From Candidatus Saccharimonadota bacterium (GTDB lineage: Bacteria; Patescibacteriota; Saccharimonadia; CAILAD01; BJGX01): a stretch of 64,000 nt of DNA. The stretch spans positions 32,670 through 96,669 of the forward strand of contig JACPPH010000006.1 of the NCBI GenBank assembly GCA_016191105.1, written 5' to 3'. The notes beneath the pieces are model-generated. The model worked only from the letters and a program-made list of their open reading frames with translations. It was not told the origin of the DNA and searched no databases. Positions 6,319-24,667 of this stretch are shown piece after piece. Numbering within the stretch: position 1 is the first letter of the stretch; the number at the start of each line of letters is the position of its first letter. The position numbers were made by a program, and so were the translations under genes.

Positions 6319-6411
6319 GGCACCCCCTAATTTATATCCGTATTATACTTACTACTAAGCTTGCTTGGCAACAAGATCCAACAATAGTATGATAGCCCCA
6401 AAGGAGAAACT

Positions 6412-6756: not shown

Positions 6757-8253
6757 TTACACCCTGTACTGTAGGGCCTCGCTAAAGTGCTCGGACTTGA
6801 TTTGCTCCGAATCATTCATATCGGCAATCGTGCGACTAACTTTTAGAACACGTATATAGGCCCGGGCGGTTAAGTTCATGTTATTTAAGGCTTGGCGGGC
6901 GAGCAACTCTACATCTGAGTCTAGGCTACAATATTGCTTAATGTGCTTGTTGGTCATCTCGTTGTTGCTACTAAAAGGCTCATCTTGGAAGCGACTAATC
7001 TGTATCTGTCGAGCTTTCTCGACTCGACCTCTAACCGATCTGGATGGTTCTCCAGCCACTCCTGCCAGAAGTTCATCGTTTTTGAGTTTTTGAACCGGCA
7101 CTACCAGATCGATTCTATCGAGCAATGGGCCCGAGACCTTAGTCTGGTAGCGATTGATTTGGGCTAGGCTACAGGTGCAGGCAGTTGAGCTGTCACCGCT
7201 AAAACCACAAGGGCAAGGGTTTTGAGCCGCTACCATTAGAAAGCGAGCCGGAAACTTATAGCTAGCACTGGCTCTGGCAACTGTTACCTGGCCTTCTTCG
7301 AGCGGTTGACGCAGCACCTCAAGCACATGACGTGGAAATTCTGGCAGCTCGTCTAGAAACAGCAGGCCACGGTGGGCCAAGCTGATTTCGCCAGGTTTGG
7401 GTGACTGACCGCCACCTATTAGAGCAATGTTGCTGGCGGTGTGGTGCGGGCTACGAAATGGGCGAGCGGTAATAATGTTGTCGGTTTGAACCCCAGCTAA
7501 GCTGTGAATGCTGGTGATCTCGAGCATTTCCTCGTAGCTAGGTGCTGGCAATATGCCAGCCAGGGCCTTGGCTAGTAAGGTCTTGCCGCTCCCAGGTGGG
7601 CCACTAAGCAAAATGTTGTGATTACCGCTGGCGGCTATTTCGACCGCTCGTTTAGCCTGAGCCTGGCCATAGATATTGCTCATATCGACTTCGCTTTCGT
7701 GGATTTTGCCAGATATGCCTTTGTGTCGTAAGGGGATAATTGCTTTCTCACCAATCAGGTGTTGGTAGAGTTGGCCAATGTCTTTTACAGGGTAGATGGT
7801 GATATCTTTAACCAGTGCAGCTTGCTCGGCAATCTCGGCTGCTATGTATAGCTCGCTAAGGCCACTCATTTTGGCGGCTTGGGCGGTGGCTAGGGCCCCG
7901 TTTACAGTTCTGGTAGAACCATCGAGAGCCAGTTCGCCATAAAAAGCCGAGGCTGGGCTAATGTGCTTAATTTGACCACTACTAGCTAGCAGGCTAACGG
8001 CAATAGCCAAGTCAAAACCGCTTCCGTTCTTGGGTAGATCGGCTGGCGCTAGATTAACTGTGATTCGCCGAGGAGGCAGGTGGAGATTGGCGTTCTTGAG
8101 TGCGCTCCTGACTCTTTCTTTGGCCTCGTCGACGGCTTTGTTGGCTAGACCCACGACTATGAAGGCTGGCAAGCCGTTATAAATGTCGGTTTCGACCTCA
8201 ATGTGGTAGCTTGTAAGCCCAAAGTGGGCGATTGTATTAACTTTTGTTAGCAT
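6757..8253 (-). CDS. comM: YifB/ComM-family Mg-chelatase-like AAA+ ATPase
   Basis: Walker A GPPGSGKTLLAKALAGILP, ChlI-like arginine finger region and a C-terminal domain. 498 aa. Confidence 0.9.
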   Translation of the reverse strand: MLTKVNTIAHFGLTSYHIEVETDIYNGLPAFIVVGLANKAVDEAKERVRSALKNANLHLPPRRITVNLAPADLPKNGSGFDLAIAVSLLASSGQIKHISPASAFYGELALDGSTRTVNGALATAQAAKMSGLSELYIAAEIAEQAALVKDITIYPVKDIGQLYQHLIGEKAIIPLRHKGISGKIHESEVDMSNIYGQAQAKRAVEIAASGNHNILLSGPPGSGKTLLAKALAGILPAPSYEEMLEITSIHSLAGVQTDNIITARPFRSPHHTASNIALIGGGQSPKPGEISLAHRGLLFLDELPEFPRHVLEVLRQPLEEGQVTVARASASYKFPARFLMVAAQNPCPCGFSGDSSTACTCSLAQINRYQTKVSGPLLDRIDLVVPVQKLKNDELLAGVAGEPSRSVRGRVEKARQIQISRFQDEPFSSNNEMTNKHIKQYCSLDSDVELLARQALNNMNLTARAYIRVLKVSRTIADMNDSEQIKSEHFSEALQYRV

Positions 8254-10794: not shown

Positions 10795-12030
10795 TTAGAT
10801 CAGCTGAGCATAGATATGTTCGAGCTTCTTGGCTTGTTGGCTCATGGTGATCTTTTTGGCTTCGGTGTGGGCCTGTTCACCAAACTTAATAGCCAGCTCG
10901 GGGTTGTGTATGAGCTTGCCGATTTTATTTGCCAAATCATGCACCGTAGCTTTGGCCAGCAAACCAGTTTTGCCATCGATAGTTAATGGTGATATTTCTG
11001 GATCACAAAATACTATCGGTTTTTTGCTGTAGGCCGCTTCGTTTATAACCAGTCCCTGAGTGTCGGTAAGAGAAGGAAAGGCGAATACATTGGCAGCTCT
11101 AAAGCAGGCAAAGGTCTCGGCTCGACCGAGTGAGCCGGTGAAAGTGGTTAGCTGGTCGATGCCCAAGTCTTCGCTTAAGCTTTCGAGCTGGCCGTAGTAG
11201 GGGCCATCGCCCACAATCAACAATCTGGATTGCGGCATGGCCTTTACATTGTGGGCAAAAGCTCGCAACAGCAGCTGAATGTTCTTTTCTTCACCCAAGC
11301 GGCCAACAAACAATACCACCGGCGCATCTGTATCTATGCCATATTGCTGGCGCGGCTCGAAGCTGGTATGCAGGCGCGCCTCTTCGGGATCAATACCCGT
11401 AGGCAAGATGTCTATGGGCGAATTCACATGATAGCTCTTGAGCTGTTCGGCCATCTTGACCGACGGTGCAATTATCTGATCGCACATATCATAAAAACTG
11501 GTCAACCCTTCGCGCACCACTTTGCGATTCCAGTGGCGGATTGGGCGACCAGGCTTAAGCGCACTCAGGGTATCCGAGTAGAGGCCACGGCTTTTTATAA
11601 ACACCGGTGCCCAGAGTGCGGCAATGATTATTCCAGCCAACGCCCGTTTGTAAATTTTGATGTAACTTTCGATGTCGGTATGGTGGGTGATAACCGTTGG
11701 CAAATGATCCTCTCGAGCTATACGCAGTCCCAGGATGCCCATTTGGGCCGGGGTGTGAATGTGAACCAGGTCTAGGTTGTAAGACCGCACGCGTCGCACA
11801 ATTGCCGGGGTAAACGGCATGGTGTCACGATAGTCCTCGTACCAAATGCTCGGGAACGAGCGAAAGCGCACAATATTCCTGGTTTCACGCCGGTTTTTAC
11901 CGGGCGCACCAGGGCAAAATATAAACACCTCATGACCAAGTCGCCTTAGCTCCCGGGCAAACAGCTCAACCGACACGGCCACGCCATCGACTTGCGGGTA
12001 GTAGCGATCAGTAAAAAAGCCGATTCTCAC
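10795..12030 (-). CDS. Glycosyltransferase family 4 (GT-B fold)
   Basis: MRIGFFTDRYYPQVDGVAV is a typical GT4 N-terminus. The C-terminus carries an EX7E-like region. Confidence 0.85.
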   Translation of the reverse strand: MRIGFFTDRYYPQVDGVAVSVELFARELRRLGHEVFIFCPGAPGKNRRETRNIVRFRSFPSIWYEDYRDTMPFTPAIVRRVRSYNLDLVHIHTPAQMGILGLRIAREDHLPTVITHHTDIESYIKIYKRALAGIIIAALWAPVFIKSRGLYSDTLSALKPGRPIRHWNRKVVREGLTSFYDMCDQIIAPSVKMAEQLKSYHVNSPIDILPTGIDPEEARLHTSFEPRQQYGIDTDAPVVLFVGRLGEEKNIQLLLRAFAHNVKAMPQSRLLIVGDGPYYGQLESLSEDLGIDQLTTFTGSLGRAETFACFRAANVFAFPSLTDTQGLVINEAAYSKKPIVFCDPEISPLTIDGKTGLLAKATVHDLANKIGKLIHNPELAIKFGEQAHTEAKKITMSQQAKKLEHIYAQLI

Positions 12031-13193
12031 TTGGCTACTACTTTCTGAAAGATGTTTTCGTATTTGTTGAGCATGGCGGTGTTGGAATGGTTTTTAACCA
12101 CAATTTCGCGACTGGCTTTGCCAAACTTGTCGGCCCTGTCGGGGCTTTTTAAGATCTCGGTGATTTTTTCGGCCATCATGCCCGAGTTGTTCTCGGTAAA
12201 TAGGTAGCCGTTGGCATTATTATGGACAAGTTCGTGCAGAGCGGCAACATCGACCGACACCACTGGTAGCCCACTAGCCATAGCCTCGAGCGTAACTATG
12301 CTTTGTAGCTCGGCTGGCGAGCTAATGGCAAACAGATTGGCACTGTTATAGATAAGCGGCTTGTCGGCCTCGTCTATGTAACCTGTAAATGTAACCGAGC
12401 TCTGGATGTTCAGCTTTTGAGCTAAATTTTTGAGCCGGTCCATAGCTATGCCAGAACCACATATAACCAAGTGGGCTGTTGTGTTTTTTAACACATGCGG
12501 CATAGATTTTAGCAAAATGTCGAGTCGTTTTTCGCCGTCCACCCGGCCGACGTATAGCACAATCGGTTTGTCGCTAGGAATTTTGTACTTTTGCAGGGTT
12601 TTTACAGATTTGGTTCGGGGTTTAAAGATGTCGGTGTCAACACCATTGGTCACGGCTTCGGCTGGCGTTTTGAGACCATATTTTTTTAGAAAACTTAAAG
12701 CCGTTGGGGTTGGAGTAGTTACAAATGTGGCCTTATTGTGAAATCGCACCAGCCAATGCCAATAAAAGGTGTGGAGCCGGCCGTATAAAAACTTTATGCC
12801 TTTTAGGTTTAGCAAAAAGTTCTCAGGCATTAGGTGATTGGTGGCTACTACGGGAACATCATGACGCCGAGCATAGCGCATGCTAGTACGCCCCAGCATA
12901 AAGGGGTTGTGAATGTGCACGATATCGGCTTTAGCACTGTTAAATACCTGGCGAGTATGGGTGGCGGGCACAAAACTAGCCTTGTACTTGGGGTTAAAAA
13001 AGAAGGTTACAGCTCGCTCTCGGTGGATTAGCGACTTGCCATCGTGCTGCTCGTAGCTGCGAAACTTTCTACCAGGAGCCCACACCTGAACCTGGTGGCC
13101 TCGACCGATTAGGCCCTGAACCAATCGGCGCTCAAACAAGGCCCCGCCATCGGCATTGGGCCAATAACTTTCACTTACCAGTAAAATCTTCAT
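12027..13193 (-). CDS. Glycosyltransferase family 4
   Basis: MKILLVSESYWPNADGG N-terminus, taken from the internal ATG at 13193. 4-bp overlap with the downstream GT4 gene. Confidence 0.8.
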   Translation of the reverse strand: MKILLVSESYWPNADGGALFERRLVQGLIGRGHQVQVWAPGRKFRSYEQHDGKSLIHRERAVTFFFNPKYKASFVPATHTRQVFNSAKADIVHIHNPFMLGRTSMRYARRHDVPVVATNHLMPENFLLNLKGIKFLYGRLHTFYWHWLVRFHNKATFVTTPTPTALSFLKKYGLKTPAEAVTNGVDTDIFKPRTKSVKTLQKYKIPSDKPIVLYVGRVDGEKRLDILLKSMPHVLKNTTAHLVICGSGIAMDRLKNLAQKLNIQSSVTFTGYIDEADKPLIYNSANLFAISSPAELQSIVTLEAMASGLPVVSVDVAALHELVHNNANGYLFTENNSGMMAEKITEILKSPDRADKFGKASREIVVKNHSNTAMLNKYENIFQKVVAK

Positions 13194-13303
13194 GCTTTGG
13201 CTTCTATTATCCCGATTTTTGGCCGGTTTGGCCAGCCCCAATCTGTAAATACACCACAAAAAGCTTGTGTTTTCGAGGGTTTTGTAGTATAGTCTTACAT
13301 CTA

Positions 13304-13696
13304 GGGGCTGACTAGCTTCGACATTGAATCTTGAAATATACCTGCAGGCCGGGTTGGAATGCACGTTAGCCGTTCCGCCAAACCTTAAGTGGCAAAACAC
13401 TTATGAGCAAACTGGTAAACGCTTTGCGCGTTGACAGCTTTGCACCAGCTTACGCTTAACCCGTGTAAGCCGCTGATTGTTCGACATCAGATAGAACCTG
13501 ACGCGTCAACCATCTGATTGCTTTCCGGATAGCCCCTTCATATCTGGAATCAAGCCAAAGATAGGGGAAGCATGTGCTTGTTTTGTTGGTTTTCTTAGAT
13601 AGCACAGCCTTCTAAAACACATCAAAGCTAACTACGCTTGTAGACGGTATATTGAAAGCTCGATGGACGAGGGTGCGATTCCCTCCAGCTCCACCA
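13304..13696 (+). ncRNA. ssrA: Transfer-messenger RNA (tmRNA, ssrA)
   Basis: 5' GGGGCTG pairs with 3' CAGCTCC, including the G3-U wobble expected of an alanine acceptor stem. The 3' end GGACGAGGGTGCGATTCCCTCCAGCTCCACCA matches the T-arm plus CCA of tmRNA. The ~390-nt length fits. An internal reading frame ends ...GCT TAC GCT TAA. Confidence 0.8.
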
Positions 13697-15226
13697 ACAG
13701 GAACTTTCAGAATTTTTTGAGCCAGACGAAAGGACTGCCTCGCGGCTTCGCCGCTCGGCTAAGCCGCTTTGCGCAAGGCGCAAAGCGGCAGAATCCCACG
13801 GCTCGCCAAACGAAACGGAAACGGATTTGTCCAAAAGCATGGGGTTCGTTCCGATCTTTTGGACAAATACCTTGATTTCCCCGAAACTCTCGCTCTGCGA
13901 GAGTTTTTCGGCTTTATTCGCGTCTAAAATCCACGCTCGCAAGGGTTGGAGCCAATTCTTTCCCGTTCGTCCAAAATCCTCCAAATCGTTCGCAAGAGAA
14001 ACTTTTTGCTTCAAAAGTTCTTCTTTTTTGGCGAGATAGTTTTCTTTGGGAATGTCGCCGTCAATGTAGGCGGAAACGAGCTTGTCTAGTTTCTCTTGCG
14101 TATCAGAAAGTTTGGATTTGAGATTTTGGACGAAAGATTGCGATGAGTGGATATCTTCTCTTTGCCATTCGTCTACTTGCTTTAGCATTTTCTCTGTCCA
14201 CTCATCGCAAATAGCAACGCTTTTGAGCTGTGCCTTCAGTTGCGCGGCAAGATTGCTTTCTTGCACATATTTTTGTGAACACACGCCTTTCTTTTTAGTG
14301 CAACGATAGTAGCGATATATTCCGCCGCACTTGCCGCGCGAAAATTGCGCCGTGATCGCCGAGCCGCACTCTCCGCAAGTAAGCAGTCCGGTAAATGGAA
14401 AATCGTGGCGTTGTTTTGATTTGCGGGGTTTGGCACGGCGCAATAAGACATTCTGCACGGCTTCAAAAAGCGTTGCGGAAAGAATTGGCTCAAAGCGTCC
14501 CTCGTGATATTCGCCCTTATGCTTCACCAAACCTAAATATGCTTGATTGGTGAGCATTCGCGATATGGACGCTTTGGCAAGTGGCGTTCGGTGCCGAGTT
14601 TCCAAACCAAGTTCAGCCAAAAACTCCGCCATAGTTTCCAATGTATGCGTTCCTTTGGCGTATTCCTCAAACGCACGGACAATTACTTTGGATAATGTCG
14701 GGTGCGGTTCAATGGTGCGCGTTTTCGGATTATTCACATAACCAAAGGGCGCTTTGGTCAGCCACTCTCCGCGGCGGAGTTTTTGGCGGATACCGCGATT
14801 GATATTCTCCACGAGATTATCGCTGTAATATTTGGATTGACCGAACGCCACTTGCAACATGAACAATCCTTGCGGCGTGGGCTCAAACCAAAATGTCGGA
14901 AAGCGCAAAGAAACGATTTTTTGCGTGTCCACGAGATAAATCACTTTGCCGCCGTCCACAGAATTACGCGCCAACCTGTCGGGGTGCCATGCGAGTATTC
15001 CCACGCCGTCCATTTTTTCAATCTCGCTTATCATGGCGGCAAACATTTCTCGCCCCGGTTTCTTTGCGCTTTTCGCCTCTGTAAATTCTTGGAGAATTTC
15101 CACATTTTCTCTGCGCGCATATTCTCGTAGCTCAAAGAGTTGAGCTTCAATACTCATAATTTGGTGGTCGTCATCCTCCGTTGATTTCCGAGCGTAGAGA
15201 AAATATTTTGGTTTGAGCATATTCAT
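13628..15226 (-). CDS. Large serine recombinase (resolvase/invertase catalytic domain, recombinase domain, zinc ribbon and coiled coil)
   Basis: N-terminal YARKSTEDD...SIEAQ catalytic serine motif, a central recombinase domain and a zinc ribbon CGECG...C..C. 532 aa. The 3' end of the ORF runs through IR-A and overlaps the tmRNA 3' end. Confidence 0.9.
   Translation of the reverse strand: MNMLKPKYFLYARKSTEDDDHQIMSIEAQLFELREYARRENVEILQEFTEAKSAKKPGREMFAAMISEIEKMDGVGILAWHPDRLARNSVDGGKVIYLVDTQKIVSLRFPTFWFEPTPQGLFMLQVAFGQSKYYSDNLVENINRGIRQKLRRGEWLTKAPFGYVNNPKTRTIEPHPTLSKVIVRAFEEYAKGTHTLETMAEFLAELGLETRHRTPLAKASISRMLTNQAYLGLVKHKGEYHEGRFEPILSATLFEAVQNVLLRRAKPRKSKQRHDFPFTGLLTCGECGSAITAQFSRGKCGGIYRYYRCTKKKGVCSQKYVQESNLAAQLKAQLKSVAICDEWTEKMLKQVDEWQREDIHSSQSFVQNLKSKLSDTQEKLDKLVSAYIDGDIPKENYLAKKEELLKQKVSLANDLEDFGRTGKNWLQPLRAWILDANKAEKLSQSESFGEIKVFVQKIGTNPMLLDKSVSVSFGEPWDSAALRLAQSGLAERRSREAVLSSGSKNSESSCWWSWRESHPRPSSFQYTVYKRS
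13691..13822. repeat. IR-A left copy (132 bp, GC-rich). It begins with the terminal CCACCA of the tmRNA.
   Basis: It is the reverse complement of 15254-15385 with 1 mismatch in 132 bp. It contains an internal perfect palindrome gccgctttgcgc..gcgcaaagcggc. Confidence 0.9.
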
Positions 15227-15253
15227 ATTTGAATTATTTTAGACGCGAATAAA

Positions 15254-15385
15254 GGTTTCCGTTTCGTTTGGCGAGCCGTGGGATTTTGCCGCTTTGCGCC
15301 TTGCGCAAAGCGGCTTAGCCGAGCGGCGAAGCCGCGAGGCAGTCCTTTCGTCTGGCTCAAAAAATTCTGAAAGTTCCTGTTGGTG
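15254..15385. repeat. IR-A right copy (inverted relative to 13691-13822)
   Basis: 131 of 132 bp identical to the reverse complement. Confidence 0.9.
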
Positions 15386-15386
15386 G

Positions 15387-15520
15387 GATATTCTAAACTT
15401 TGCGCGAAACTATTTTGAAGGGAACTAGCCCGCCTCCGCTTCGCTCCGGCGGAACGCTCGGGCGCGGCGGAATTCCCCCCACACCCCCCTTCCGCCGCGC
15501 CCTCGCTTTGAAAGCCGCCG
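15387..15520. repeat. IR-B left copy (~134 bp, GC-rich). It starts 1 nt after IR-A right.
   Basis: It is the reverse complement of ~18625-18760. Confidence 0.85.
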
Positions 15521-15681
15521 CGCAGAAAATTCAGAAAAGAAAAGTGGTGTCGTGTTTGCCCCGCCCACCCATGCGCACACGACATCAATTTTGCTCCCCG
15601 AAACTACTGTAGCATAATTGGTCGCCATAGACTAATTGTATAACATCTGCTAAAATTCTTGCAAGAGCGATAATTTCCTTT

Positions 15682-15885
15682 ATGGCGAACGAAATTACAA
15701 AATTCGGTAAAAAGGTCAAAGAAATACGCTTGAAAAAGCGAATGTCGCAAGGCGACATCGCAAGAATTTTGGGCGTTCATAGGAGCTATATCAGTGGCCT
15801 AGAGCGCGGTATTCGCAACCCATCTCTTTTAACGGTTCAAAAAGTGGCTAAAGCGCTAAAAGTGAACGCAAAAGATTTAATATAA
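15682..15885 (+). CDS. XRE-family helix-turn-helix transcriptional regulator
   Basis: MSQGDIARILGVHRSYISGLERGIRNPSLLTVQKVAKAL is a classic HTH_XRE sequence. Confidence 0.85.
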   Translation: MANEITKFGKKVKEIRLKKRMSQGDIARILGVHRSYISGLERGIRNPSLLTVQKVAKALKVNAKDLI

Positions 15886-15902
15886 AGCTTTACCCTCGGC
15901 AT

Positions 15903-16679
15903 ATGAAAACGAAACTGAAGAAACTGAAGATCGGAATATGGACGTTTATTGTTGTGGCGCTTTTAGTTGCGGCAAAATTTCTGATTCACGCCTGGGGGCT
16001 CGAATACTTCTCGCTTAACGCCCTCTTTACGAGCGCGATCGCGGGAGCGATCTTCATCATGGGTTTCCTGCTTGCTGGAATTATGGCCGATTATAAGGAG
16101 GCGGAAAAAATTCCGGTGGAGCTTCGTTCGTCTCTTGAGAATATTTGGGAGGAGGGAAAGTTCTTCAGCCGTGATAAAAGAGAGTTCAATCTCTCAAAAC
16201 TTAATGACACCTTACTCTCAATAGTCCGGAATTTCTTTAAAGGCCTCGGGCACGAGGGCGACCACTACCGGCTCGATCCGTGCGTTGCGTCAGTCAACGA
16301 GCTTTCGGAGTCGTTTGGACAAATGGAAAAGCTTGGCATGCCACCCAACTATATCGTCCGGCTCGAGGGCGAGCAGGCCTCGGTACGCCGCCAGGTGCTG
16401 CGTGTCTATCATATCCAACGCACGCAATTCCTGCCTTCGGCACACATACTTGCAGAATCCCTCGCGCTCGGAATGGTGTTCCTGCTCCTCTTTGTCAAAA
16501 CGGAAGGATCGCCGGAGTCTATCGTGCTATTCGGATTCATATCGTATCTGTTCCTCTACGTCCGGCAACTCATTCGCGTTCTTGAGAAGCCGTTCAGGCA
16601 GGGCGATAATACGCTCGACGACGTGAGCCTATTTCTCTTGAAAAAGTTTGAGAAGGAATTGTCAGGACATACGGCATGA
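15903..16679 (+). CDS. Integral membrane protein, hypothetical
   Basis: Two N-terminal and two C-terminal hydrophobic helices. 258 aa. Confidence 0.45.
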   Translation: MKTKLKKLKIGIWTFIVVALLVAAKFLIHAWGLEYFSLNALFTSAIAGAIFIMGFLLAGIMADYKEAEKIPVELRSSLENIWEEGKFFSRDKREFNLSKLNDTLLSIVRNFFKGLGHEGDHYRLDPCVASVNELSESFGQMEKLGMPPNYIVRLEGEQASVRRQVLRVYHIQRTQFLPSAHILAESLALGMVFLLLFVKTEGSPESIVLFGFISYLFLYVRQLIRVLEKPFRQGDNTLDDVSLFLLKKFEKELSGHTA

Positions 16680-16698
16680 TTTGCGAGTTGTGCGTTTT

Positions 16699-18579
16699 AT
16701 GAAAATTGCAAACGACCAAAAGAAAAGTAATCACCTGGAATGGATACTGACGGCGATTGCCGCCGGCACCTTCGTCGCGGGAATTTTTTTCAGTGTAATC
16801 AAATTGCCTCTGGCAGACTGGTTTTATTATATATCCTTGCTAGCTGGTGGGTTGCCAGTGGCAAGAGCGGCGACACGAACTCTCCTCCGGCGGAAAATAT
16901 CAATTAATGTACTGGTAACCATCGCAGCTATCGGAGCGCTGTATCTTGGACAAATCGCCGAGGCGGCGGCAGTGATGTTTTTCTTTGCTTTGGCGGAATC
17001 ATTTGAAAAATTTGGCAAAGCGCGTTCGCAAAAAGCTATAGCCGCACTGCTGGAGAGATCGCCGAAACTCGCCCGCCTGCAGGATGGCCGAGAAGTCGCG
17101 GTCGAAAAGGTTGGCGTCGGCGAAACCATAAAAATTCTGCCCGGCGACCTTATCCCTCTGGACGGGATAGTCAGCGGAGGCGACTCCGCAGTCGATGAAG
17201 CGGCTATTACCGGTGAAAGCGTCCCGAAGGAAAAGTATGCGGGACAAACGGTATTTGCCGGCACTATGAACGAAAACGGCTATCTGGAAGTCAGAGTTAC
17301 GAAAACCGCTTCCAATACCACACTTTCTAAAATAATTGTGCTTATCCAGCAGGCGCAAAAGTCCAAGCCTGAAATGCAGGAATTTCTGGACAGGTTTGCC
17401 AGCTTCTATATTCCAGCCGCTCTAGCTCTCGCGGCGCTTGTGGTTATTGTGCCGACCGTGTTTTTCGGACAGCCGTTTAGTCCCTGGCTTACCACGGCCC
17501 TGATTTTACTGGTTTTAGCCTGCCCGGATGCGCTGGTGGTGTCGGCTCCTGTGGCAGTGGCTGCCGCCATGGGCGGAGCTTCGCGCAGAGGAGTATTAAT
17601 AAAGGGCGGCAAATTTCTAGAGTCTTTAAGCAAGGTTAAAGCGTTTGCATTTGATAAGACCAAGACGCTTACTGAAGGGAGTTTGAAAGTGGCCGAAGTC
17701 ATAACTATGCATGGAGCAAGTGAGGAAGAAGTTTTGTCTGATGCCGCAGGACTAGAAAAATTCTCATCTCATCCATTGGCGGCTACCATTCAAAAATATG
17801 CTGCCGACAAGGGCGTCTCCGTTCATGATATGGAAGATTTCAAAAACATTCCCGGACGTGGAGGCTTGGCTAATTGCATGGTTTGTCCAACAAAAGATCA
17901 TGCCATTGGTAATTTGCAACATATCGGCGCAAGTATCAAGGTATGCAAGGATGTTTTGAAGGAAGTTGAGAGAATGGAATCGCTTGGCATGACAACGGTC
18001 ATTGTCAGCGAAGGCCCCAAAGTGATAGGGATCATAGGCATCACTGACCGCCTGCGCCAAGAATCTAAAAACGTTATCACCTCGCTTAATTCGCTTGGAG
18101 TCACACCGGTTATGCTTACGGGCGATAATGAACGGGCCGCCCGTCATATAGCGGAGCAAATAGGAATTAACGAAGTTCATGCGGCCTTGCTTCCTGATCA
18201 AAAAGCCGAACTGGTGAGAGTATTGCAGCAAAGGTATGGAAAAGTCGCCATGGTGGGAGACGGCGTAAATGATGCGCCATCTTTGGCGCGGGCTGATGTA
18301 GGCATAGCGATGGGCGGAGGCGGGTCGGATGTTGCAATCGAGACAGCTGATGTCACTTTGATGAACGATGCCCTAGGCACTATTCCTTACCTGCTTAGAT
18401 TAGGACGCCAAACCTTCAGCGCAGTGAAGCAGAATGTATATGGCTCGCTTGCAGTAAAGGGTGTGATCCTTCTGCTCGGCTTATTTGGTCTGGTGCGGCT
18501 TGATGTGGCTGTGGCAGTTGATGCGGGCGCAGCCATAGTGGTTATATTGAATGGCCTACGATTGTTTAATGCGAAGTAA
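16699..18579 (+). CDS. P1B-type (heavy-metal) P-type ATPase without an N-terminal HMA domain, with variant motifs
   Basis: TGES, CPD (where CPC is usual), DKTKTLTEG (where DKTGT is usual), GDGVNDAPSL, and a transmembrane core like CadA/ZntA. I chose the internal ATG at 16699. Confidence 0.8.
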   Translation: MKIANDQKKSNHLEWILTAIAAGTFVAGIFFSVIKLPLADWFYYISLLAGGLPVARAATRTLLRRKISINVLVTIAAIGALYLGQIAEAAAVMFFFALAESFEKFGKARSQKAIAALLERSPKLARLQDGREVAVEKVGVGETIKILPGDLIPLDGIVSGGDSAVDEAAITGESVPKEKYAGQTVFAGTMNENGYLEVRVTKTASNTTLSKIIVLIQQAQKSKPEMQEFLDRFASFYIPAALALAALVVIVPTVFFGQPFSPWLTTALILLVLACPDALVVSAPVAVAAAMGGASRRGVLIKGGKFLESLSKVKAFAFDKTKTLTEGSLKVAEVITMHGASEEEVLSDAAGLEKFSSHPLAATIQKYAADKGVSVHDMEDFKNIPGRGGLANCMVCPTKDHAIGNLQHIGASIKVCKDVLKEVERMESLGMTTVIVSEGPKVIGIIGITDRLRQESKNVITSLNSLGVTPVMLTGDNERAARHIAEQIGINEVHAALLPDQKAELVRVLQQRYGKVAMVGDGVNDAPSLARADVGIAMGGGGSDVAIETADVTLMNDALGTIPYLLRLGRQTFSAVKQNVYGSLAVKGVILLLGLFGLVRLDVAVAVDAGAAIVVILNGLRLFNAK

Positions 18580-18624
18580 ATACCAAAATGAATTTGCGGC
18601 GTGCCAGCTTCGCTGGCCTGAATG

Positions 18625-18760
18625 GCGGCGGCTTTCAAAGCGAGGGCGCGGCGGAAGGGGGGTGTGGGGGGAATTCCGCCGCGCCCGAGCGTTCCGCCGG
18701 AGCGAAGCGGAGGCGGGCTAGTTCCCTTCAAAATAGTTTCGCGCAAAGTTTAGAATATAC
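18625..18760. repeat. IR-B right copy (inverted)
   Basis: Reverse complement of 15387-15520. Confidence 0.85.
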
Positions 18761-18812
18761 CCCTCCGGAGCTTCGCAGATATTGCTTGCAAAGCCCAAAA
18801 GGGGGGCGGTGG

Positions 18813-19712
18813 TCACGATTGGAGGGCCGTGGCCAGGTTGGAGGCGAGGTTGCGGATGGCCTGCTTGCCGTCGTCGGTGATGATCGGGATCGACCGCGAG
18901 TAGCTGCTCTCGGTTGCCAGACCGATGTTGAAGTTGATCTTCGGTACCTCGTACTCGACTGGCTTTTCAGGTTCGTGACGGTTCTTGTTCTCCCGGAGTC
19001 CGGTCATCATCGAGGCGTGGGTCTGCCAGGCCGGCATCTCGTCCTCGAGCTGCCATGGCTGGACGATGCCGCCGAGGCTCAACGCCACTTCGTAGTCGCC
19101 GACCTGGAATCGGGGGCGACCGAAGTGACGCAGGGGGCCTCCGCGCTCTTCCGTCATGATCTGCTCGACGATCTGCTCACTCGTGCACTCGGCTCCGATC
19201 GTCGTCAGGTTGATGCTGATGACCTCGAAGTCGAAGGTGACAAGCTCGCTGTCGGGCTCGACCTGTGCGGTGACGTCGATGTGCTGAACTGCGCGGTCGA
19301 TCTGGAGGGACTCGGCGAGCCCCACCTCGACCTGGTCACCGACGTAGGCGGCACTGAGATGCAGCAAGAACCAGGTGTCGTCCAGCTTCTGGACCTCGAC
19401 GGTGGTCTTGAAGAACCGACCAACGCCGTCGTAGTCGTAGTGGTAGCTGTACGAGCCCACCGCTTCGATGCCGGCGTCGATCTTGGTGAAGAGGTCGGTC
19501 AGGAACCGATCGTCTCCACCATACATCTCCTCGACGAGCGGCTTCAACAACGCGATCCCGACGCCACCATCCTGGATCAGCTTCTTCTCGGTGGCATTCG
19601 ACCCGGCCGTCTGGCCAGAGGCGAAGAGTCGGAGTGCGTTGCGAACGGCCTCGATCCCTTCGAGTGGGATGCCGCTCAGGTATTCCGTGGTATTGACGGT
19701 GAGGAAGCTCAT
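18813..19712 (-). CDS. Hypothetical protein, GC-rich (~60%), foreign-looking
   Basis: Ribosome-binding site ggaaggag 8 nt upstream of the ATG. Varied amino-acid composition. The antisense 391-aa ORF is an artefact. Confidence 0.55.
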   Translation of the reverse strand: MSFLTVNTTEYLSGIPLEGIEAVRNALRLFASGQTAGSNATEKKLIQDGGVGIALLKPLVEEMYGGDDRFLTDLFTKIDAGIEAVGSYSYHYDYDGVGRFFKTTVEVQKLDDTWFLLHLSAAYVGDQVEVGLAESLQIDRAVQHIDVTAQVEPDSELVTFDFEVISINLTTIGAECTSEQIVEQIMTEERGGPLRHFGRPRFQVGDYEVALSLGGIVQPWQLEDEMPAWQTHASMMTGLRENKNRHEPEKPVEYEVPKINFNIGLATESSYSRSIPIITDDGKQAIRNLASNLATALQS

Positions 19713-19830
19713 GGCTTCACTCCTTCCTGTAGGTGTGGGGTGCGACCGCTTTCACGGCCCTAGACTTACTAGAGATGCTGACAATGTTACCATAAGTAAT
19801 TTAGTTTGTCAATACCCTGGTGTTAATCCC

Positions 19831-20286
19831 TTATCGGAGTACTGGTGATCCGTTGAGCTTCCATCTGTTGTATTCGGGAGTTAGTATTTCTCTCCAGTAG
19901 GCAGCGTTTTCGAGTATTAGGTGTAAATTATTGCGTATTCGCTCCACCATGGGAGACTCAGAGTCATTTTCTGGGTCTTTTTTGGTACTTGCTAACCTGA
20001 TAAGTGGACTAATTTGCTGGGTGTAAACTTTTCCATCTTTTTTAACTACAAAATCCTGTGGAAATACCAATTGTTTACACCTCAAGCCTATCATCGTGTG
20101 GTTCAACTGCCAGTACTTTTTAGTCATGTTGTTGATAAAGCCGATGGAGAAGTGTACAAACTCCGATAGATCCTTTTCTACGTTCTTGACCCCATTAATC
20201 TCTTTTTTGTTTTCAACAAGGCTCTGTTTTACCTTTTCGATTGCTTGTTTAGTATAGTCAGCGAGTTCGGGACTATTTGCCAACAA
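19831..20286 (-). CDS. Hypothetical protein (AT-rich module)
   Basis: 151-aa ORF, ~38% GC, downstream of the Fic gene and on the same strand. Confidence 0.4.
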   Translation of the reverse strand: MLANSPELADYTKQAIEKVKQSLVENKKEINGVKNVEKDLSEFVHFSIGFINNMTKKYWQLNHTMIGLRCKQLVFPQDFVVKKDGKVYTQQISPLIRLASTKKDPENDSESPMVERIRNNLHLILENAAYWREILTPEYNRWKLNGSPVLR

Positions 20287-20291
20287 GGTTA

Positions 20292-20477
20292 TTAGCCTAC
20301 TTTCTGTTCCTGAAGCTCAATAGACCGCGTCTCGAGCCGTTTAAGATACTCAAGCTTAGTTTGTTGTCTCTGACGCCAAACTGTATCAAGGGTGGTCTCT
20401 AGATCCGTACAGCCCAAGGAGAAGGCTTCATCCAGCTTATCTAAGACCGATTTAGTCATAACACTGGGGCTAGTCAT
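20292..20477 (-). CDS. Small hypothetical protein (61 aa) between the Fic gene and the 151-aa ORF
   Basis: ORF only. It might be a Fic-associated partner. Confidence 0.3.
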   Translation of the reverse strand: MTSPSVMTKSVLDKLDEAFSLGCTDLETTLDTVWRQRQQTKLEYLKRLETRSIELQEQKVG

Positions 20478-20587
20478 AGTACCTACGGTATACTCCTGTA
20501 TAGCGTACTACGGGCAAATTTGAAGACATCCAAAGAGACTCCTTTATCTTGTAAGTAGGGGCGGTAGGTGATAACTAACCCAACCTT

Positions 20588-21709
20588 CTAGCTTATTAGA
20601 GTTAGTAGTTTTGGAAAATAGTAGACAGTGGCACCCTTTGTGCCTCTAACAGATCTTATGGAATCGATCACCCTATCTTCTAATAATCTGTTAACCAAGG
20701 AACTGGCAGTAATTCTAGAGATTTTCAGTGTCTTTATTACATGGGAGATTTGGAATACTGGTGTTTCAAATATCATGTTAACCATTCTGTTCATATTGGG
20801 GGATTGTGAACCTTCGTACCTATCAAGCAATATCTCATTTAGCTTGGTTATCTTTTCTACAAGACTGATCGATATGCCACACTGTTCCTTTAAGGATTCC
20901 AGGAAGAATATTATCCAAGGGGTGATGTCGCCAGTTGTGTCAACATAGTGAAGCATCTGACGGTATTCCTTTGCTTTTTTCTCGAAGTATTCACTGGTGT
21001 AAAGGACGGGGGCAGAAAGTGCACCCTGGTATTGAAGAAGGGCAGGGATTAACATTCTACCAATTCTTCCATTCCCATCCTCAAATGGGTGGATAGCCTC
21101 AAACTGATAGTGGAAGATTGCAGTTTTTATCAAGGGCGTCTCATCTGTGGAGTTAAAATAGTCAACCAGATTATCCATATATCCTTCCACAGCGGTGTAG
21201 AAAGGTGGAACATAGGTAGCTTTTTGTATGGAAGTGCTCTTGTTTTTACCTATCCAAACATCTTTTGACCTAAATTTACCAAGAGCTCCGTTATGAGGGG
21301 TTCTATGTAAGAGAACATAGTGAAGTTGACGTATCTGGTATTTTGAAATGCCGCCCTTTTGATCTTTTATCTTCATAGCAAGACGCATCGCATCACGATA
21401 ATTTGCAACTACGATGGTATCTTGTTGGGGCGCTTTGCCTGTTGCGTCAAGAATGAAAACATCCTTAGAATCGGTGATTGTACCTTCTATCTTGGAGCTT
21501 AGAGAAGCCTCTCTTGTTAGTAGGGGCTTTATCAAGTGTTCTGCATTAGATATTTTACTGTGTGCAGTTTGGAGCATACCTAATGCATACGAAGCTTCCG
21601 CTAACTGCCGGTAGTACTTGCTGGGATCAAGATTTTTTAAGGGTAAGTATGATGGTTGACCGTATTTTACATTCATGATATATAACTTTCTATGAATATT
21701 ATACATCAT
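20588..21709 (-). CDS. Fic/Doc-family protein (AMPylase-type toxin-like), with a putative N-terminal auto-inhibitory motif
   Basis: HPFEDGNGRIGRMLIPALL matches HPFx[DE]GNGRxxR. SSKIEG matches [ST]xxxE[GN] near residue 70. AT-rich promoter upstream at 21710-21760. Confidence 0.85.
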   Translation of the reverse strand: MMYNIHRKLYIMNVKYGQPSYLPLKNLDPSKYYRQLAEASYALGMLQTAHSKISNAEHLIKPLLTREASLSSKIEGTITDSKDVFILDATGKAPQQDTIVVANYRDAMRLAMKIKDQKGGISKYQIRQLHYVLLHRTPHNGALGKFRSKDVWIGKNKSTSIQKATYVPPFYTAVEGYMDNLVDYFNSTDETPLIKTAIFHYQFEAIHPFEDGNGRIGRMLIPALLQYQGALSAPVLYTSEYFEKKAKEYRQMLHYVDTTGDITPWIIFFLESLKEQCGISISLVEKITKLNEILLDRYEGSQSPNMNRMVNMIFETPVFQISHVIKTLKISRITASSLVNRLLEDRVIDSIRSVRGTKGATVYYFPKLLTLIS

Positions 21710-22024
21710 ACATTATGTTTGTATATACACTATATATCTTTTCTTGGAGAAGGTACTATGTGGGTGTCATTCCCTCAACGGAGTAGAGCAGATCTGTCGA
21801 GCTTATACCTCTCATAATCCGAGTACAGCAGTTCTCTCCAGTAGGTTATGTTTTCAGATAAAGCTTGCCAACTTTTTGCTATCCTCTCCACCAAAGAAAG
21901 ATCAGATTAAACCTGGTCTCTTTTTTGATTGACAAATATACTTTAATCTTATAAAATAGTGGCGTTCTTGAATCTGTCGTCTGGTGAACCATTCACCACA
22001 GATTCAGAAGAAAGCAGGTCTACA

Positions 22025-22261
22025 ATGGGTGCACGAAATGCAGCCGACGACCCAACCAAGAAACCCCTCCACGCCTACCTGAGCAAAAAAGCTCACGATG
22101 CTTGGCAGGAGGCGAGCGATGAAGCTGGTGTGAGCATGTCCGCTCTTCTAGAGGCCATTGGCCTTAGTTGGGCGGAAAAGCCACCGACAGAAGACGCTGA
22201 GTGGTTCGACGCCATCGCAGGCCGGGCGCGCAAAATCGATACCTTTCGTCGCCGGCGCTAG
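22025..22261 (+). CDS. Hypothetical small protein, GC-rich
   Basis: MGARNAADDPTKKPLHAYLSKKAHDAWQEASDEAGVSMSALLEAIGL… may be a ribbon-helix-helix-type or DNA-binding small protein. Confidence 0.35.
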   Translation: MGARNAADDPTKKPLHAYLSKKAHDAWQEASDEAGVSMSALLEAIGLSWAEKPPTEDAEWFDAIAGRARKIDTFRRRR

Positions 22262-22273
22262 AGGAGGAGCTCA

Positions 22274-22599
22274 TGGCAACCACGCTATTGTTCAAGGCCG
22301 GCCAGCAAGTAATCTGGAACCCGACACTCGATGGCAACAAACAGCTTGCAGAGCTCCAGCGCGCATACAGCGCAGGGCCGTTCAGGGTGGTTGAGGTGCG
22401 TTCTTGCGGTCAGTCACCTTGCAACTGTGGCAGCCCACCTGGCTACCCGCATAGTTCGAGCTGCCCCAAGGGACTCGGTCGGTTGCTCGGTCACCCCCAG
22501 TGGCTAATCTTGACCGATCTGCAAGGCCGACCCATCAACAGCTGCTTCCACGACATGGGTCCGGTGCAACTTTCGGGCCGCTGGTTCGCAGCAACCTGA
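22274..22599 (+). CDS. Hypothetical protein, GC-rich, cysteine-containing
   Basis: ATG at 22274 preceded by GGAGGAG. 108 aa. Confidence 0.4.
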
Positions 22600-22633
22600 G
22601 CCAAACACAACTACAAGGAGGGAATACCCACGG

Positions 22634-22680
22634 AAAAGACCACGCGGTCCACCAGTCCGTGGGTCTTTTCGTTTATAGAA
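22634..22680 (+). terminator. Rho-independent terminator
   Basis: aagaccacgcggtccaccagtccgtgggtcttttcgttta. Confidence 0.5.
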
Positions 22681-22870
22681 CAAGCCGTTGTGGTACTGAC
22701 CTCTCTATATCTGCACAGCCTTGCTTTTAAAAGAATAGACCGACTAAGGCCTTGCTATAAGCTAGTAGTCATTTTTTTTGTACAGATTGACTTTTTAACT
22801 ACAAAGGACAACAATAATAGCAACTTGTCCGAAAGGCGGACTTGTAGCTCCAGGAAGGTGGTTAGCGACC

Positions 22871-23251
22871 ATGTCCAAGATAGCAACCGAAAGTCGGGTG
22901 CAGAAGGCAAAGCCTTCGCGCCACGGCGTGCCAACCAGGGAGAGCATGATCGGCGACATCGTCGACGAACTGGGATGCAGCCTCGACGACGCGAACCTCA
23001 CCGTCACGATCATCGACCGGATCGGCGCGAAGCTGCGAGCCGGCCAGAGCCGGGTGCAGATCGACACCTGGGCCGAGTTCAACGCTGTGCATCCTTTGCT
23101 CAACCAGATCATGCCGCCCGGGCAACGAGCGCCCCAGGCCGGCACTCTGCACGCCAAGGCCAACGCCTACGCCAGCCGTGACAAGCAAGTCGCACTGGTG
23201 CACGTCGGCAGCAAGAACTGCATCATCATCGCCGACGACGTCGTCGTCTGA
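22871..23251 (+). CDS. Hypothetical protein, GC-rich
   Basis: Ribosome-binding site aggaaggtgg before the ATG. 126 aa. Confidence 0.45.
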   Translation: MSKIATESRVQKAKPSRHGVPTRESMIGDIVDELGCSLDDANLTVTIIDRIGAKLRAGQSRVQIDTWAEFNAVHPLLNQIMPPGQRAPQAGTLHAKANAYASRDKQVALVHVGSKNCIIIADDVVV

Positions 23252-23426
23252 TCGGCAACATCTCGATCATCTAGCGCTTCGCCGCGCGAATGGGGCATCC
23301 CTCTACGCCCCCGACAGAGCCCTCGCTCCCGCCGGGGGCTTTGTCGTTACATTTGTTATAATAATGGCTGAGATCTATAGGGCGGCCAACAGGCCGCTTA
23401 TCCGTTCCAAGACAAGGGAGAGGGAC

Positions 23427-23996
23427 ATGACCCGACCATATCGAATCCAGGTCGTATCTGTAGGTGTGGGCAAATCGCAGGTGATTGGCGCCAAGCCAAG
23501 CGGAGAGGAATGGTCTTCGGCCATTCACAAGGAGCCTGTCAGCTCTCGTAGCCTATGGGTTGATCGCAACGGCCTCGAAGGGGATACCCAGGTAGACAGG
23601 AGGGTGCACGGTGGTGACGACAAGGCAGTGTATGCATATCCTAGCGAGCACCTAAAGGCGTGGGCTGAGGAAGTCGGTCGTGAGATCACCGCGGCTGAGC
23701 TAGGAGTGAACCTGCTAGTAGAGGGTGTGACAGAAGAGACTGCGAGGATCGACGACAAGTGGTGGTGGAACGGTGTAAGGCTGATCATCACCAAGCCCCG
23801 TCAGCCCTGCAACACTCTGAGACATCACACCGGGATTCAAGACATCCGGCTGAGGATGAAAAACAACGGTTTCTGTGGCTGGTATCTGAGGGTGCTGCAG
23901 CCGGGCAGGGGTCTCACCAGCGGTGACATCTCAGTTACCCCTGGTTATGGGCCGACAGTTGCCGAGGTCTTTGCTGGAAAGACCTTCGAAACCTAA
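23427..23996 (+). CDS. MOSC-domain protein (YiiM-like)
   Basis: Ribosome-binding site aagggagaggga, then ATG at 23427. The central region has …VHGGDDKAVYAY… and a conserved Cys (QPCNTL) typical of MOSC. Confidence 0.75.
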   Translation: MTRPYRIQVVSVGVGKSQVIGAKPSGEEWSSAIHKEPVSSRSLWVDRNGLEGDTQVDRRVHGGDDKAVYAYPSEHLKAWAEEVGREITAAELGVNLLVEGVTEETARIDDKWWWNGVRLIITKPRQPCNTLRHHTGIQDIRLRMKNNGFCGWYLRVLQPGRGLTSGDISVTPGYGPTVAEVFAGKTFET

Positions 23997-24178
23997 GGAC
24001 ACCACGCAGGCGCGTAGAGGTCTTCACAAGCCGTCAGAAGGGTGACAACAGTCGCTTTTCGGGCGGCTGTTGTTATTTATAGAGGCTTTGCATATAATAT
24101 ACGAGACAACGGGCGGGCAAATCAGCCCGCTTTTTGCGAATTGACCCCACAAGTGAATCGAAAGAAGGAGGGCCTGTC

Positions 24179-24637
24179 ATGGCCAAACCAAAAGTAGCAG
24201 TCCTGATGGGCTCGCCCAACGACATGGACAAGATGAAGCCGGCGGCCGACACACTGGAGCGCTTCGGACTTGAGGCCGATGTGCGGGTGCTGTCCGCTCA
24301 CCGTAACCCCGATCAGGTGGTGGAGCTGGTGAGCACCGCACGTGAGAACGGCTACGCGGCACTCATCTGCGGTGCTGGCATGGCGGCTCATCTGGCCGGC
24401 GTATGCGCCGCCCACACCACCTTGCCGGTGGTGGGGGTCCCCTTGAGCGGTGGTGCTCTGAACGGCGTCGATGCGCTCTACAGCACTGTACAGATGCCCA
24501 AGGGGATCCCGGTGGCCACCGTGGCCATCGATGGTGCCATGAACGCCGCCCTACTGGTGGCGGAAATGCTGGCCATCACCGACGAGACCCTGCAGGACAC
24601 TCTCTACTTGTATCGCCAAGAGCTCGCCAACAAGTAG
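24179..24637 (+). CDS. purE: N5-carboxyaminoimidazole ribonucleotide mutase (class I PurE)
   Basis: VAVLMGSPNDMDKM…AHRNPD…GAGMAAHLAG. 152 aa. Ribosome-binding site gaaggag. ~65% GC. Confidence 0.9.
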   Translation: MAKPKVAVLMGSPNDMDKMKPAADTLERFGLEADVRVLSAHRNPDQVVELVSTARENGYAALICGAGMAAHLAGVCAAHTTLPVVGVPLSGGALNGVDALYSTVQMPKGIPVATVAIDGAMNAALLVAEMLAITDETLQDTLYLYRQELANK

Positions 24638-24667
24638 TCCGACCCCAACCCAACGGAAGGAAATTCC

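Follow-up and report, generated by a model that had tools for sequence, protein, structure and literature searches.

A large serine recombinase between two abutting inverted-repeat pairs at the end of a tmRNA gene: a probable integrated element of Patescibacteria that keeps a second, inverted attP

The stretch of DNA analysed here, referred to as the window, comprises 64,000 nucleotides (nt) of contig JACPPH010000006.1 from the assembly of a Candidatus Saccharimonadota bacterium (GCA_016191105.1). At the 3′ end of its gene for transfer-messenger RNA (tmRNA) lie a gene for a large serine recombinase (LSR) and, next to it, three cargo genes, the former enclosed by one pair of long inverted repeats (IR-A) and the latter by another (IR-B). 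A preliminary description of this locus had called the layout unusual for LSR elements and had suggested either paired invertible segments or a novel terminal-inverted-repeat transposon. The layout is indeed unusual, and the repeats are real and belong to the recombinase, but we read their ends as attachment sites. Positions 13691 to 18758 would then be one integrated element of ∼5.07 kb, driven by the LSR, which has inserted at the tmRNA 3′ end and keeps a second, intact and inverted copy of its attP site; we give this reading a probability of about 0.72. The features of the locus, named according to this reading, are as follows.

13304 to 13696, plus strand: tmRNA gene, the putative integration target and left half of attB (T); called by ARAGORN and matched over its full length by Rfam RF00023 (106.7 bits).
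13628 to 15226, minus strand: LSR gene, 532 amino acids (aa), with Pfam domains PF00239, PF07508 and PF13408.
13691 to 13697, plus strand: attL core CCACCA(A), common to the internal site S2 and to the intact attR of contig L108 in three-junction alignments.
13691 to 13822, plus strand: distal arm of IR-A (A), putative right arm of the split attP, with GC-rich hairpins; its minus strand encodes the last ∼44 aa of the recombinase.
15255 to 15386, plus strand: proximal arm of IR-A (A′), the inverted copy and 5′ leader of the recombinase gene, whose ATG follows 28 nt further on.
15380 to 15386, minus strand: core of the internal attP-like site S2, TTGGTGG, the reverse complement of CCACCAA.
15388 to 15521, plus strand: proximal arm of IR-B (B), left arm of the attP-like site, with a GTTTCG(C)GCAAAG motif and a promoter-like site.
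15390 to 15419, minus strand: promoter-like site (TTCAAA, 18 nt, TAGAAT), directed across the core into A′ and the recombinase gene.
15682 to 15885, plus strand: cargo gene for an XRE-family helix-turn-helix (HTH) protein of 67 aa (Pfam HTH_3, E = 3e-17).
15903 to 16679, plus strand: cargo gene for a membrane protein of 258 aa with no family match.
16648 to 18579, plus strand: cargo gene for a heavy-metal P1B-type ATPase (TIGR01525, 559.5 bits against a cut-off of 346; TIGR01512, 491 against 313).
18625 to 18758, plus strand: distal arm of IR-B (B′), putative left arm of the split attP, at attR.
18727 to 18756, plus strand: mirror copy of the promoter-like site, directed outward into the flank.
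18758/18759: deletion junction at attR, where ∼53 nt present in L108 are gone, namely the core CCACCA and the native tmRNA terminator AAAAGAGATCAGATAGAAACTGGTCTTTTTTT.

A repeat search of positions 12000 to 20500 recovered IR-A (13691–13822 and 15255–15386) exactly as first described around the recombinase gene, with arms of 132 nt that are 99% complementary, a single mismatch and 1432 nt between them. The same search returned IR-B as 137 nt (15385–15521 and 18625–18761, 99%, arms 3103 nt apart). Alignment to contig L108, from an independent assembly, reveals that the outermost 3 nt of this match are a chance match spanning a deletion junction; the true arms (15388–15521 and 18625–18758) are 134 nt long, as had been estimated, and identical throughout (100%, no mismatch). 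The two pairs adjoin, A′ abutting B with the core TTGGTGG common to both, and the arms contain the internal palindromes that had been reported. The next longest inverted repeats in the window reach 30–34 nt at 70–87%, which makes IR-A and IR-B the sole long ones and excludes a chance origin. Each repeat is present in two copies only, and therefore neither belongs to a repeat family dispersed within the window, as the preliminary description had considered.

The protein encoded between the IR-A arms is, by every criterion that a sequence allows to be tested, an LSR. It contains a Resolvase domain (PF00239, residues 9–155, E = 9e-22), a Recombinase domain (PF07508, residues 178–263) and a zinc ribbon (Zn_ribbon_recom, PF13408, residues 277–334), and the Y-A-R-K-S15 motif with the nucleophilic serine is nearly invariant (at least 90% of sequences in a 34-sequence alignment). 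The suggested profile search against LSR subfamilies thus finds the expected domains, with scores below every NCBIfam equivalog cut-off, including those of CcrA/B/C and XisF. As had been noted, the C-terminal ∼65 residues are encoded outside the unique segment: residues 469–532 derive from IR-A (44 aa) and then from antisense tmRNA (∼21 aa), the stop codon lying 63 nt past the core. The second pair brackets the three genes first described there. The membrane protein occurs as an identical copy in eight other assemblies, and the ATPase is called as 626 aa in other assemblies, which places its start near 16699. Family searches found no replication genes among the element proteins. There is also no candidate for a directionality factor, the recombinase segment containing the recombinase gene only, in a between-arm gap of about the length of the gene.

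The reading of these repeats as attachment sites follows from their junctions. The order at the locus is T/A – recombinase gene – A′/B – cargo – B′/F, where F is the original downstream flank. IR-A begins at the terminal CCACCA of the tmRNA, and the element regenerates that 3′ end. The block A′/B (15255–15521, ∼270 bp), which we call S2, is the reverse complement of the join of B′ to A. The element therefore holds an intact, inverted copy of the very site that would be formed by circularising 13691 to 18758, and this copy separates the recombinase gene from the cargo genes at their 5′ ends. The two repeat pairs would thus be one thing seen twice: an attP split by integration into the outer arms, and an intact inverted attP in the middle. 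In a junction alignment attL reads ...CAGCT CCACCA ACAGGAAC... and S2 reads ...TAGAATATC CCACCA ACAGGAAC...; attR is expected to read ...TAGAATATC CCACCA followed by the flank, and in the window it reads ...TAGAATAT A CCCC TCCGG.

The missing piece of attR is present in L108 (run SRR12113392). Over 6533 nt this contig is 100% identical to positions 18759–25291 of the window; it then carries an extra stretch (AAAGCGTAAACATAGTTTTTTTCTGGTCAAAGATAGACTAGAGAAAAA on its own strand; L108 positions 6534–6578, opposite window 18758/18759), followed by the B arm. In window orientation its intact attR reads ...TTTAGAATATC CCACCA AAAAGAGATCAGATAGAAACTGGTCTTTTTTTGATACAAATGCGAA ACCCCTCC..., and a native terminator with a 14-bp stem and a T-run (−15.8 kcal/mol) lies past the core. 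Joining T, core and F consequently rebuilds a normal tmRNA gene with its own terminator, and the empty site would be the tmRNA directly followed by AAAAGAGATCAG.... Relative to L108 the window is without ∼53 nt at 18758/18759, crossover core included. This gap is either a real deletion that immobilised the window copy or a local assembly error; with its attR core lost, the copy in the window is no longer able to excise precisely. A further 28 nt (CATTCAGATTTCGCTTCGCGAAATACGC), present in six other assemblies (L001–L006), are absent at 15521/15522, the inner edge of the proximal B arm. When they are restored the IR-B repeat extends imperfectly, the two arms holding different small hairpins between conserved flanks CATTCAG ... 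ACGCCGCA. The window therefore appears to hold a slightly eroded copy of the element.

The attR of the window has A in place of C before the core and CCCC in place of CCAC, which would imply a tmRNA with discriminator C. Several other accounts of this damaged attR were dropped once L108 had revealed a simple deletion of ∼53 nt. These were a different crossover position, a pseudo-site, and a flank derived from the arm of an older element. A second copy of the tmRNA end was not found in the window; an inverted 24-nt likeness to it at 24318–24341 lies inside a minus-strand coding region (a gene with an AIRC/PurE domain as called in L108) and was treated as chance. Exact-protein look-ups of the recombinase and of the upstream glycosyltransferase (with two start choices) gave no match, and hence no contig with an empty site or an alternative context for the left flank. 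A circular form could not be distinguished in the collections, its junction being identical to the reverse complement of S2, and a search for the S2 core in a viral collection gave no match.

The architecture is not confined to the window. Homologues of the recombinase number in the thousands, the nearest being 60–94% identical, with named ones from Parcubacteria, Yanofskybacteria, Berkelbacteria and Paceibacterota. When one genome per species was scanned, at least 584 matches were confirmed, the best 80 of which were surveyed by script (loci are designated by L numbers); these best 80 lie almost all in Patescibacteria genome bins. An IR-A pair is present in ∼70 of them, with complete arms of 83–159 nt that are 1394–1476 nt apart and mostly 98–100% identical. 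With the exception of L024, loci lacking the pair are on contigs that begin or end within a few hundred bases of the gene. The last 4–6 nt of a tRNA or tmRNA gene lie within the distal A arm, and nine kinds of target gene were recorded (Ala 16, Glu 13, Ser 11, tmRNA 7, Arg 5, Leu 3, Lys 3, Pro 2 and Gly 2). A second pair is found in every locus with enough upstream sequence (23 including the window). It abuts or overlaps IR-A by 0–13 nt, has arms of 41–426 nt and brackets 0.13–8.3 kb. Its cargo across loci includes a sodium:solute symporter, an Rce1-like protease, an aromatic amino-acid lyase, a HAD hydrolase, Fic, RhuM, an AAA_15 ATPase and a restriction-modification cluster. Second LSRs of only ∼40% identity, in L010, L055 and L062, have the same layout, so that the design must be older than the subfamily in the window. 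Identical A-arm sequences also occur beside clearly different host tRNA-Ser or tRNA-Ala sequences, which points to recent transfer between species.

The survey bears directly on whether the repeats might be an artefact, created by mis-traversal of a repeat graph during assembly. Many short-read contigs do end inside the repeats, and the window itself differs from other assemblies by the two small deletions beside the IR-B arms. However, the same architecture occurs in dozens of independent assemblies, including the closed chromosome CP060229 and single-contig assemblies of 515–831 kb; every arm is flanked by unique sequence, and in several loci the arms have diverged to 82–95% identity, which an artefact cannot produce. 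The preliminary description had named an artefact as one way in which its account might fail, and we consider the chance of this negligible.

Individual loci vary the design. In L024 (537–2570) two extra minus-strand open reading frames (ORFs), of 160 and 377 aa, separate the recombinase gene from the proximal arm of IR-A and widen the spacing of the pair; by reading of the sequence, without a family search, they look PIN-like and HTH/ImmA-IrrE-like. The recombinase module, too, can therefore take up cargo. The L010 contig holds two different elements of the same design: 1.8 kb from the first, a 41%-identical second recombinase (6402–8126) with its own inverted pair of 122 nt abuts a tRNA-Ser gene and adjoins the restriction-modification cluster and an HTH gene. 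In L088 (2339–9872) the 426-nt B arm has a third, partial copy (6528–6654, 93%) inside the 6.7-kb cargo, which suggests that two cargo modules have been joined in one element.

Comparison of the junctions across loci defines the site more closely. In alignments from 24 loci, attL, S2 and attR share a core of 3–9 nt (the shortest, of 3 nt, in L066), which in all junction sets corresponds to the last bases of the acceptor stem plus the discriminator. The core follows the target: CCAC(CA) for Ala, Leu and tmRNA, TCAC for Glu, GCAC for Arg and Gly, CCGC for Ser and GGAC for Lys. Most cores are non-palindromic, and the two that flank each segment are inverted relative to each other. The consensus of the B arm in 52 loci is TTCGAAAAAAGTTCGNGCAAAGGTTANNATTACA followed by the core. 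Its GTTCG motif starts at −24/−23 in 39 of 52 B arms, and the GTTCG of the T-loop starts at −18 in 45 of 52 tRNA arms, so that the motif lies 5–6 bp farther out from the core in the B arm. In serine integrases, the motif for the second DNA-binding domain is 5 bp nearer the centre in attB than in attP, or 4 bp in the case of SPbeta (PMC11722253). The shift of 5–6 bp fits a role of the tRNA T-arm as a B-type half-site and of the B arm as a P-type half-site. An AACTTT motif is present at equal distance from the core in both arms of S2. The flank F is not conserved between loci, and target recognition would therefore depend mainly on the tRNA arm.

S2 differs from the tRNA arms in a further respect. 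A relaxed promoter pattern is found in 38 of 52 S2 sites and in none of the 52 tRNA arms, and in the B arm a few bases separate the promoter-like site from the core. With A′ and the recombinase ATG 28 nt apart, the promoter of that gene is most naturally placed in S2. Binding of the recombinase there would occlude the −10 element, which suggests that the enzyme may regulate its own synthesis. Divergent promoter-like sites were also seen in the unique region upstream of the XRE gene (15635–15664, minus strand; 15628–15656, plus strand); transcription from the minus-strand site would also pass through S2 toward the recombinase gene, which in the window element might therefore be controlled by the XRE protein.

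The opposite end of the recombinase gene crosses the other copy of the site. Long open frames in both orientations of the repeats had been noted at the outset; such frames exist, but only the recombinase frame through IR-A shows signs of maintenance. Among 64 distinct A arms, none contains a stop in this frame, as against 28 and 49 with stops in the other two. The recombinase stop codon lies 6–358 nt past the core in every placeable locus but one, a pseudogene. Translation thus always crosses the crossover site into antisense tRNA. A conserved C-terminal peptide that depends on the integrated state and is encoded by antisense tRNA was considered and is unlikely, since the frame in which the T-loop is translated depends on the lineage, two being in use (ESNP-type and GNRT-type tails). 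We read the need as one for translation up to and across the site, and not for a particular tail. It is a matter of speculation that crossing may serve to deliver the finished enzyme next to the site.

The recombinase gene lies between inverted repeats, as in the case of hin. The preliminary description had proposed paired invertible segments in a shufflon-like arrangement; the recombinase would then flip the 1.4-kb and 3.1-kb segments as a phase-variation switch. The junction alignments do indicate that IR-A would let an inversion between attL and S2 regenerate both sites, and the recombinase segment is reversed in two of ∼62 loci (L067 and L053). In L067 the order T/A – recombinase gene – A′/B can be read directly, with arms that are only 92% identical. 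In ∼60 loci, however, the recombinase gene converges on the tRNA or tmRNA gene, and all 17 loci with uniformly oriented cargo have it pointing away from the recombinase gene (five loci have mixed cargo). This constant orientation argues strongly against regular inversion. Furthermore, inversion would alter no coding sequence, the protein is a 532-aa LSR instead of an invertase of ∼190 aa, and the ends of the repeats display the logic of integration at a tRNA or tmRNA end, with a native terminator past attR. A switch of this kind is accordingly improbable, and related loci, with orientations of ∼60 to 2 for the recombinase segment and 17 to 0 for the cargo, serve here as a proxy for the two orientations of one locus.

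Loci with arrays or derivatives were collected by a metagenome scan with the S2 core. In L103 (1–7309) the recombinase module has different B-type modules on both sides. We read this as a tandem array whose more recent member adjoins the tRNA, which implies that attL is still usable as a target. In L095, L098 and L105 a recombinase-less A–loop–A′ module lies between two different B-type arms. Together these four arrays imply that new elements enter between the tRNA gene and the elements already there. Miniature forms devoid of the recombinase gene consist of a B arm, the core, a short A–loop–A′ palindrome and a tRNA-Ala gene (L097 ∼3622–3812, L101 ∼2191–2306 and L102 ∼813–1033), and B palindromes without cargo occur in L030 and L042. 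In L100 (5403–7156) the recombinase gene, with 49.6% identity overall, is chimeric: its first ∼100 residues and the upstream A arm belong to the lineage of the window, a different lineage supplied the rest of the gene together with the distal arm, and the two A arms do not match.

Miniature derivatives beside tRNA genes (L097, L101 and L102) might be taken to mean that two independent terminal-inverted-repeat elements, or members of a dispersed miniature family, are neighbours by chance and unconnected with the recombinase mechanism. Against this, there are two copies of each repeat in 64 kb, target-site duplications are absent around either segment, and the flanking cores, inverted and mostly non-palindromic, would allow neither segment to excise alone. 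The repeats moreover always accompany this LSR family and end exactly at the tRNA core. The outer ends of a terminal-inverted-repeat transposon should resemble each other, but A and B′ are unrelated in sequence, and no transposase is present. The transposon design suggested earlier is thus replaced by one in which the repeat ends follow the logic of attL, attP and attR, with a short shared core where a tRNA or tmRNA gene ends; that the two pairs are independent of the recombinase we regard as very improbable.

The palindromic derivatives are also what might be expected if the repeats served the folding of single-stranded DNA, for example after natural transformation. Pairing of A with A′ and of B with B′ would rebuild a double-stranded attP and promoter, and the recombinase would be made and act before second-strand synthesis. 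The arms are long, perfect, GC-rich and abutting, derivatives that lack the recombinase gene or the cargo are plain palindromes, and the −10/−35 pair inside the would-be stem points into the template strand for recombinase mRNA; mismatch correction could, in addition, keep paired arms identical. However, serine recombinases cut both strands, and topological reasoning predicts that the product of a folded strand would be hairpin-capped chromosome ends that need an excision-type step. The same reasoning indicates that folding by itself does not fix the orientation of the segments, and no gene for the generation of single strands is present. We judge this account to be somewhat less probable still than a phase-variation switch. 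Single-strand folding was also among the topology models that we tried and rejected as explanations of the doubled site. The others were a hairpin-ended linear form, separate circles of the two segments, antiparallel dimerisation, and recombination of S2 with attB on the sister chromosome; the orientation bias followed from none of them, and in several cases the chromosome would be broken.

The proposal of a single LSR-driven element can be placed among known systems. With LSR elements and prophages (A118/LI, Bxb1, phiC31, SPbeta SprA, CcrAB, XisF and TnpX) it shares the catalytic Resolvase, Recombinase and zinc-ribbon set and a short junction core (3–9 nt in the 24 loci), which would surround a 2-bp crossover. 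Dyad elements in the attP arms, here AACTTT at equal distance on both sides of the core, are also common to both, and a motif lies about half a helical turn farther out in the attP-type than in the attB-type arm. The recombinase of the window is nevertheless <27% identical to any phage LSR, with weak sequence matches to the SPbeta and A118 integrase structures. The target also differs, being the extreme 3′ end of a tRNA or tmRNA gene and not a protein-coding gene. Other distinguishing features are a second full, intact and inverted attP, the enclosure of recombinase and cargo each within inverted repeats of 130–430 nt, a recombinase frame that crosses the crossover site, and the absence of an evident directionality factor.

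Genomic islands at tRNA or tmRNA genes (Islander/TIGER type, tycheposons) likewise insert at the 3′ end and restore it, carry varying accessory genes and form tandem arrays at one and the same tRNA gene. In accord with this, the tmRNA gene is complete, and the original downstream sequence (CCACCA and native terminator) is found past B′ in L108, though it is deleted in the window. Such islands are almost all driven by tyrosine integrases and flanked by direct repeats of tens of bases (PMC4383910). The present elements have a serine recombinase and a core of 3–9 nt instead, and their conspicuous repeats are inverted.

Likenesses to three other systems are superficial, since the element fails the defining features of each. 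In the Hin/Gin/Cin/Pin systems a serine recombinase gene (hin) also lies within a segment between inverted recombination sites, but these are small invertases with 26-bp sites, an enhancer and regular switching; Hin and Gin are proteins of ∼190 aa with a C-terminal HTH, and shufflons use the tyrosine recombinase Rci, on sites of 19–26 bp, in place of a 532-aa LSR with repeats of 132–134 nt and constant orientation. If excised, the element would resemble the yeast 2-micron plasmid (FLP) or plastid-type genomes in being a circle with two long identical inverted repeats and two unique regions. A recombinase site inside each repeat and the concerted evolution of repeats are further resemblances to the 2-micron plasmid; in contrast to it, there are no replication genes, the recombinase is a serine and not a tyrosine enzyme, there is no evidence of flipping, and the circle has not been observed. 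Finally, the res site of Tn3/gamma-delta acts as an operator, a recombinase-binding site between divergent genes that overlaps the recombinase promoter, much as we infer autoregulation for S2. However, res is a three-subsite resolution site used by a small resolvase of a replicative transposon, whereas S2 resembles an integration site.

The following mechanism would reconcile these observations. The B′/A attP, recreated by the joining of B′ to A, would be used at the tmRNA 3′ end. The LSR would recognise the T-arm of the tRNA or tmRNA as a B-type half-site and exchange strands at the last bases of the acceptor stem, the A arm restoring ACCA. S2 would remain intact after integration as the recombinase promoter and probably as an operator. 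Of the two copies, the one at the 3′ ends of the genes would be that used for integration, and translation that terminates only past the core may deliver new recombinase onto this copy. If attL retains competence as an attB, this would account both for tandem arrays and for the few loci with a flipped recombinase segment; owing to IR-A, a flip would regenerate both sites.

A number of points weigh against this mechanism. The case for excision, for a circle and for recombinase activity is built on comparing sequences, and the promoters are matches to a consensus and not mapped transcription starts. A circle with two identical inverted attP sites should integrate via either, and the data leave the bias of ∼60 to 2 without an explanation; loading of the enzyme in cis, or selection on promoter context, are ideas that might provide one. 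A directionality factor that would account for excision is not evident either. The non-matching A arms of L100 mean that matching is not absolutely required for persistence. Lastly, copies of the blocks are nearly always identical within an element and differ between lineages of the same architecture; they must therefore be homogenised, and the mechanism supplies no such step. Conversion tracts initiated by a break would predict a gradient of mismatches from the core; no clear gradient was found, the A arms having only a modest rise at their inner end, and an apparent excess of mismatches near the core in the B arms was rejected as an artefact of alignment offset.

A stronger proposal, that these elements form a distinct "double-attP" class of serine-recombinase elements in which S2 is a working recombination site and not just a promoter, is tentative, and we think it rather unlikely to hold in full. 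If it were true, S2 and an attB-competent attL would permit inversion of the recombinase segment with regeneration of both sites, placing the gene under its own autoregulated promoter or under read-through from the tRNA or tmRNA promoter. Mobilisation without a directionality factor would become possible, either with integration first, via a cointegrate, or through the excision of elements from tandem arrays. Because the frame crosses the core, both the C-terminus of the enzyme and its point of delivery would depend on the integrated or free state. A step in the life cycle would also copy one attP block from the other and so keep the arms identical.

Two further observations concern the surroundings of the element. 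The region from 18760 to 25000 has a patchy GC content (55–57% at 18–20 kb, 40% at 20–22 kb and 55–59% at 22–25 kb) and holds an orphan ORF of 299 aa, small ORFs and a Fic gene; it resembles foreign DNA acquired earlier beside the tmRNA gene. Within it, ARAGORN called a tRNA-SeC (20690–20783, plus strand) inside and antisense to a Fic-family ORF (20588–21709, minus strand). This call is probably false, because an Rfam search of 12000–22000 at gathering thresholds gave the tmRNA only.

Serine integrases are valued for genome engineering on account of their short sites and one-way reactions. A large natural family that uses the universally conserved tRNA T-arm as a target half-site, and switches between tRNA genes by changing a core of 4–6 nt, would provide a natural example of retargeting. 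An integrated element that keeps a live copy of attP, with an enzyme frame that crosses the site, would fall outside current models of directionality control, and the doubled attP allows one to ask by experiment whether the enzyme regulates itself, whether it acts in cis and how excision might proceed without a directionality factor. In the full-text literature searched we found neither an account of serine-recombinase elements that contain an internal inverted attP nor one of this Patescibacteria family, although one may still have been published; the family is apparently very large and undescribed.

Little is understood of how Patescibacteria exchange genes. In their genomes these repeats cause short-read assemblies to break at tRNA genes. 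The islands carry genes for transporters, metal pumps, Fic proteins and AAA ATPases (with AAA_15 or AbiEii-like AAA_21 domains), as well as RhuM-family genes. Because the same element lineage is found beside clearly different host tRNA sequences, these observations suggest that such islands are a major vehicle of horizontal transfer in Patescibacteria.

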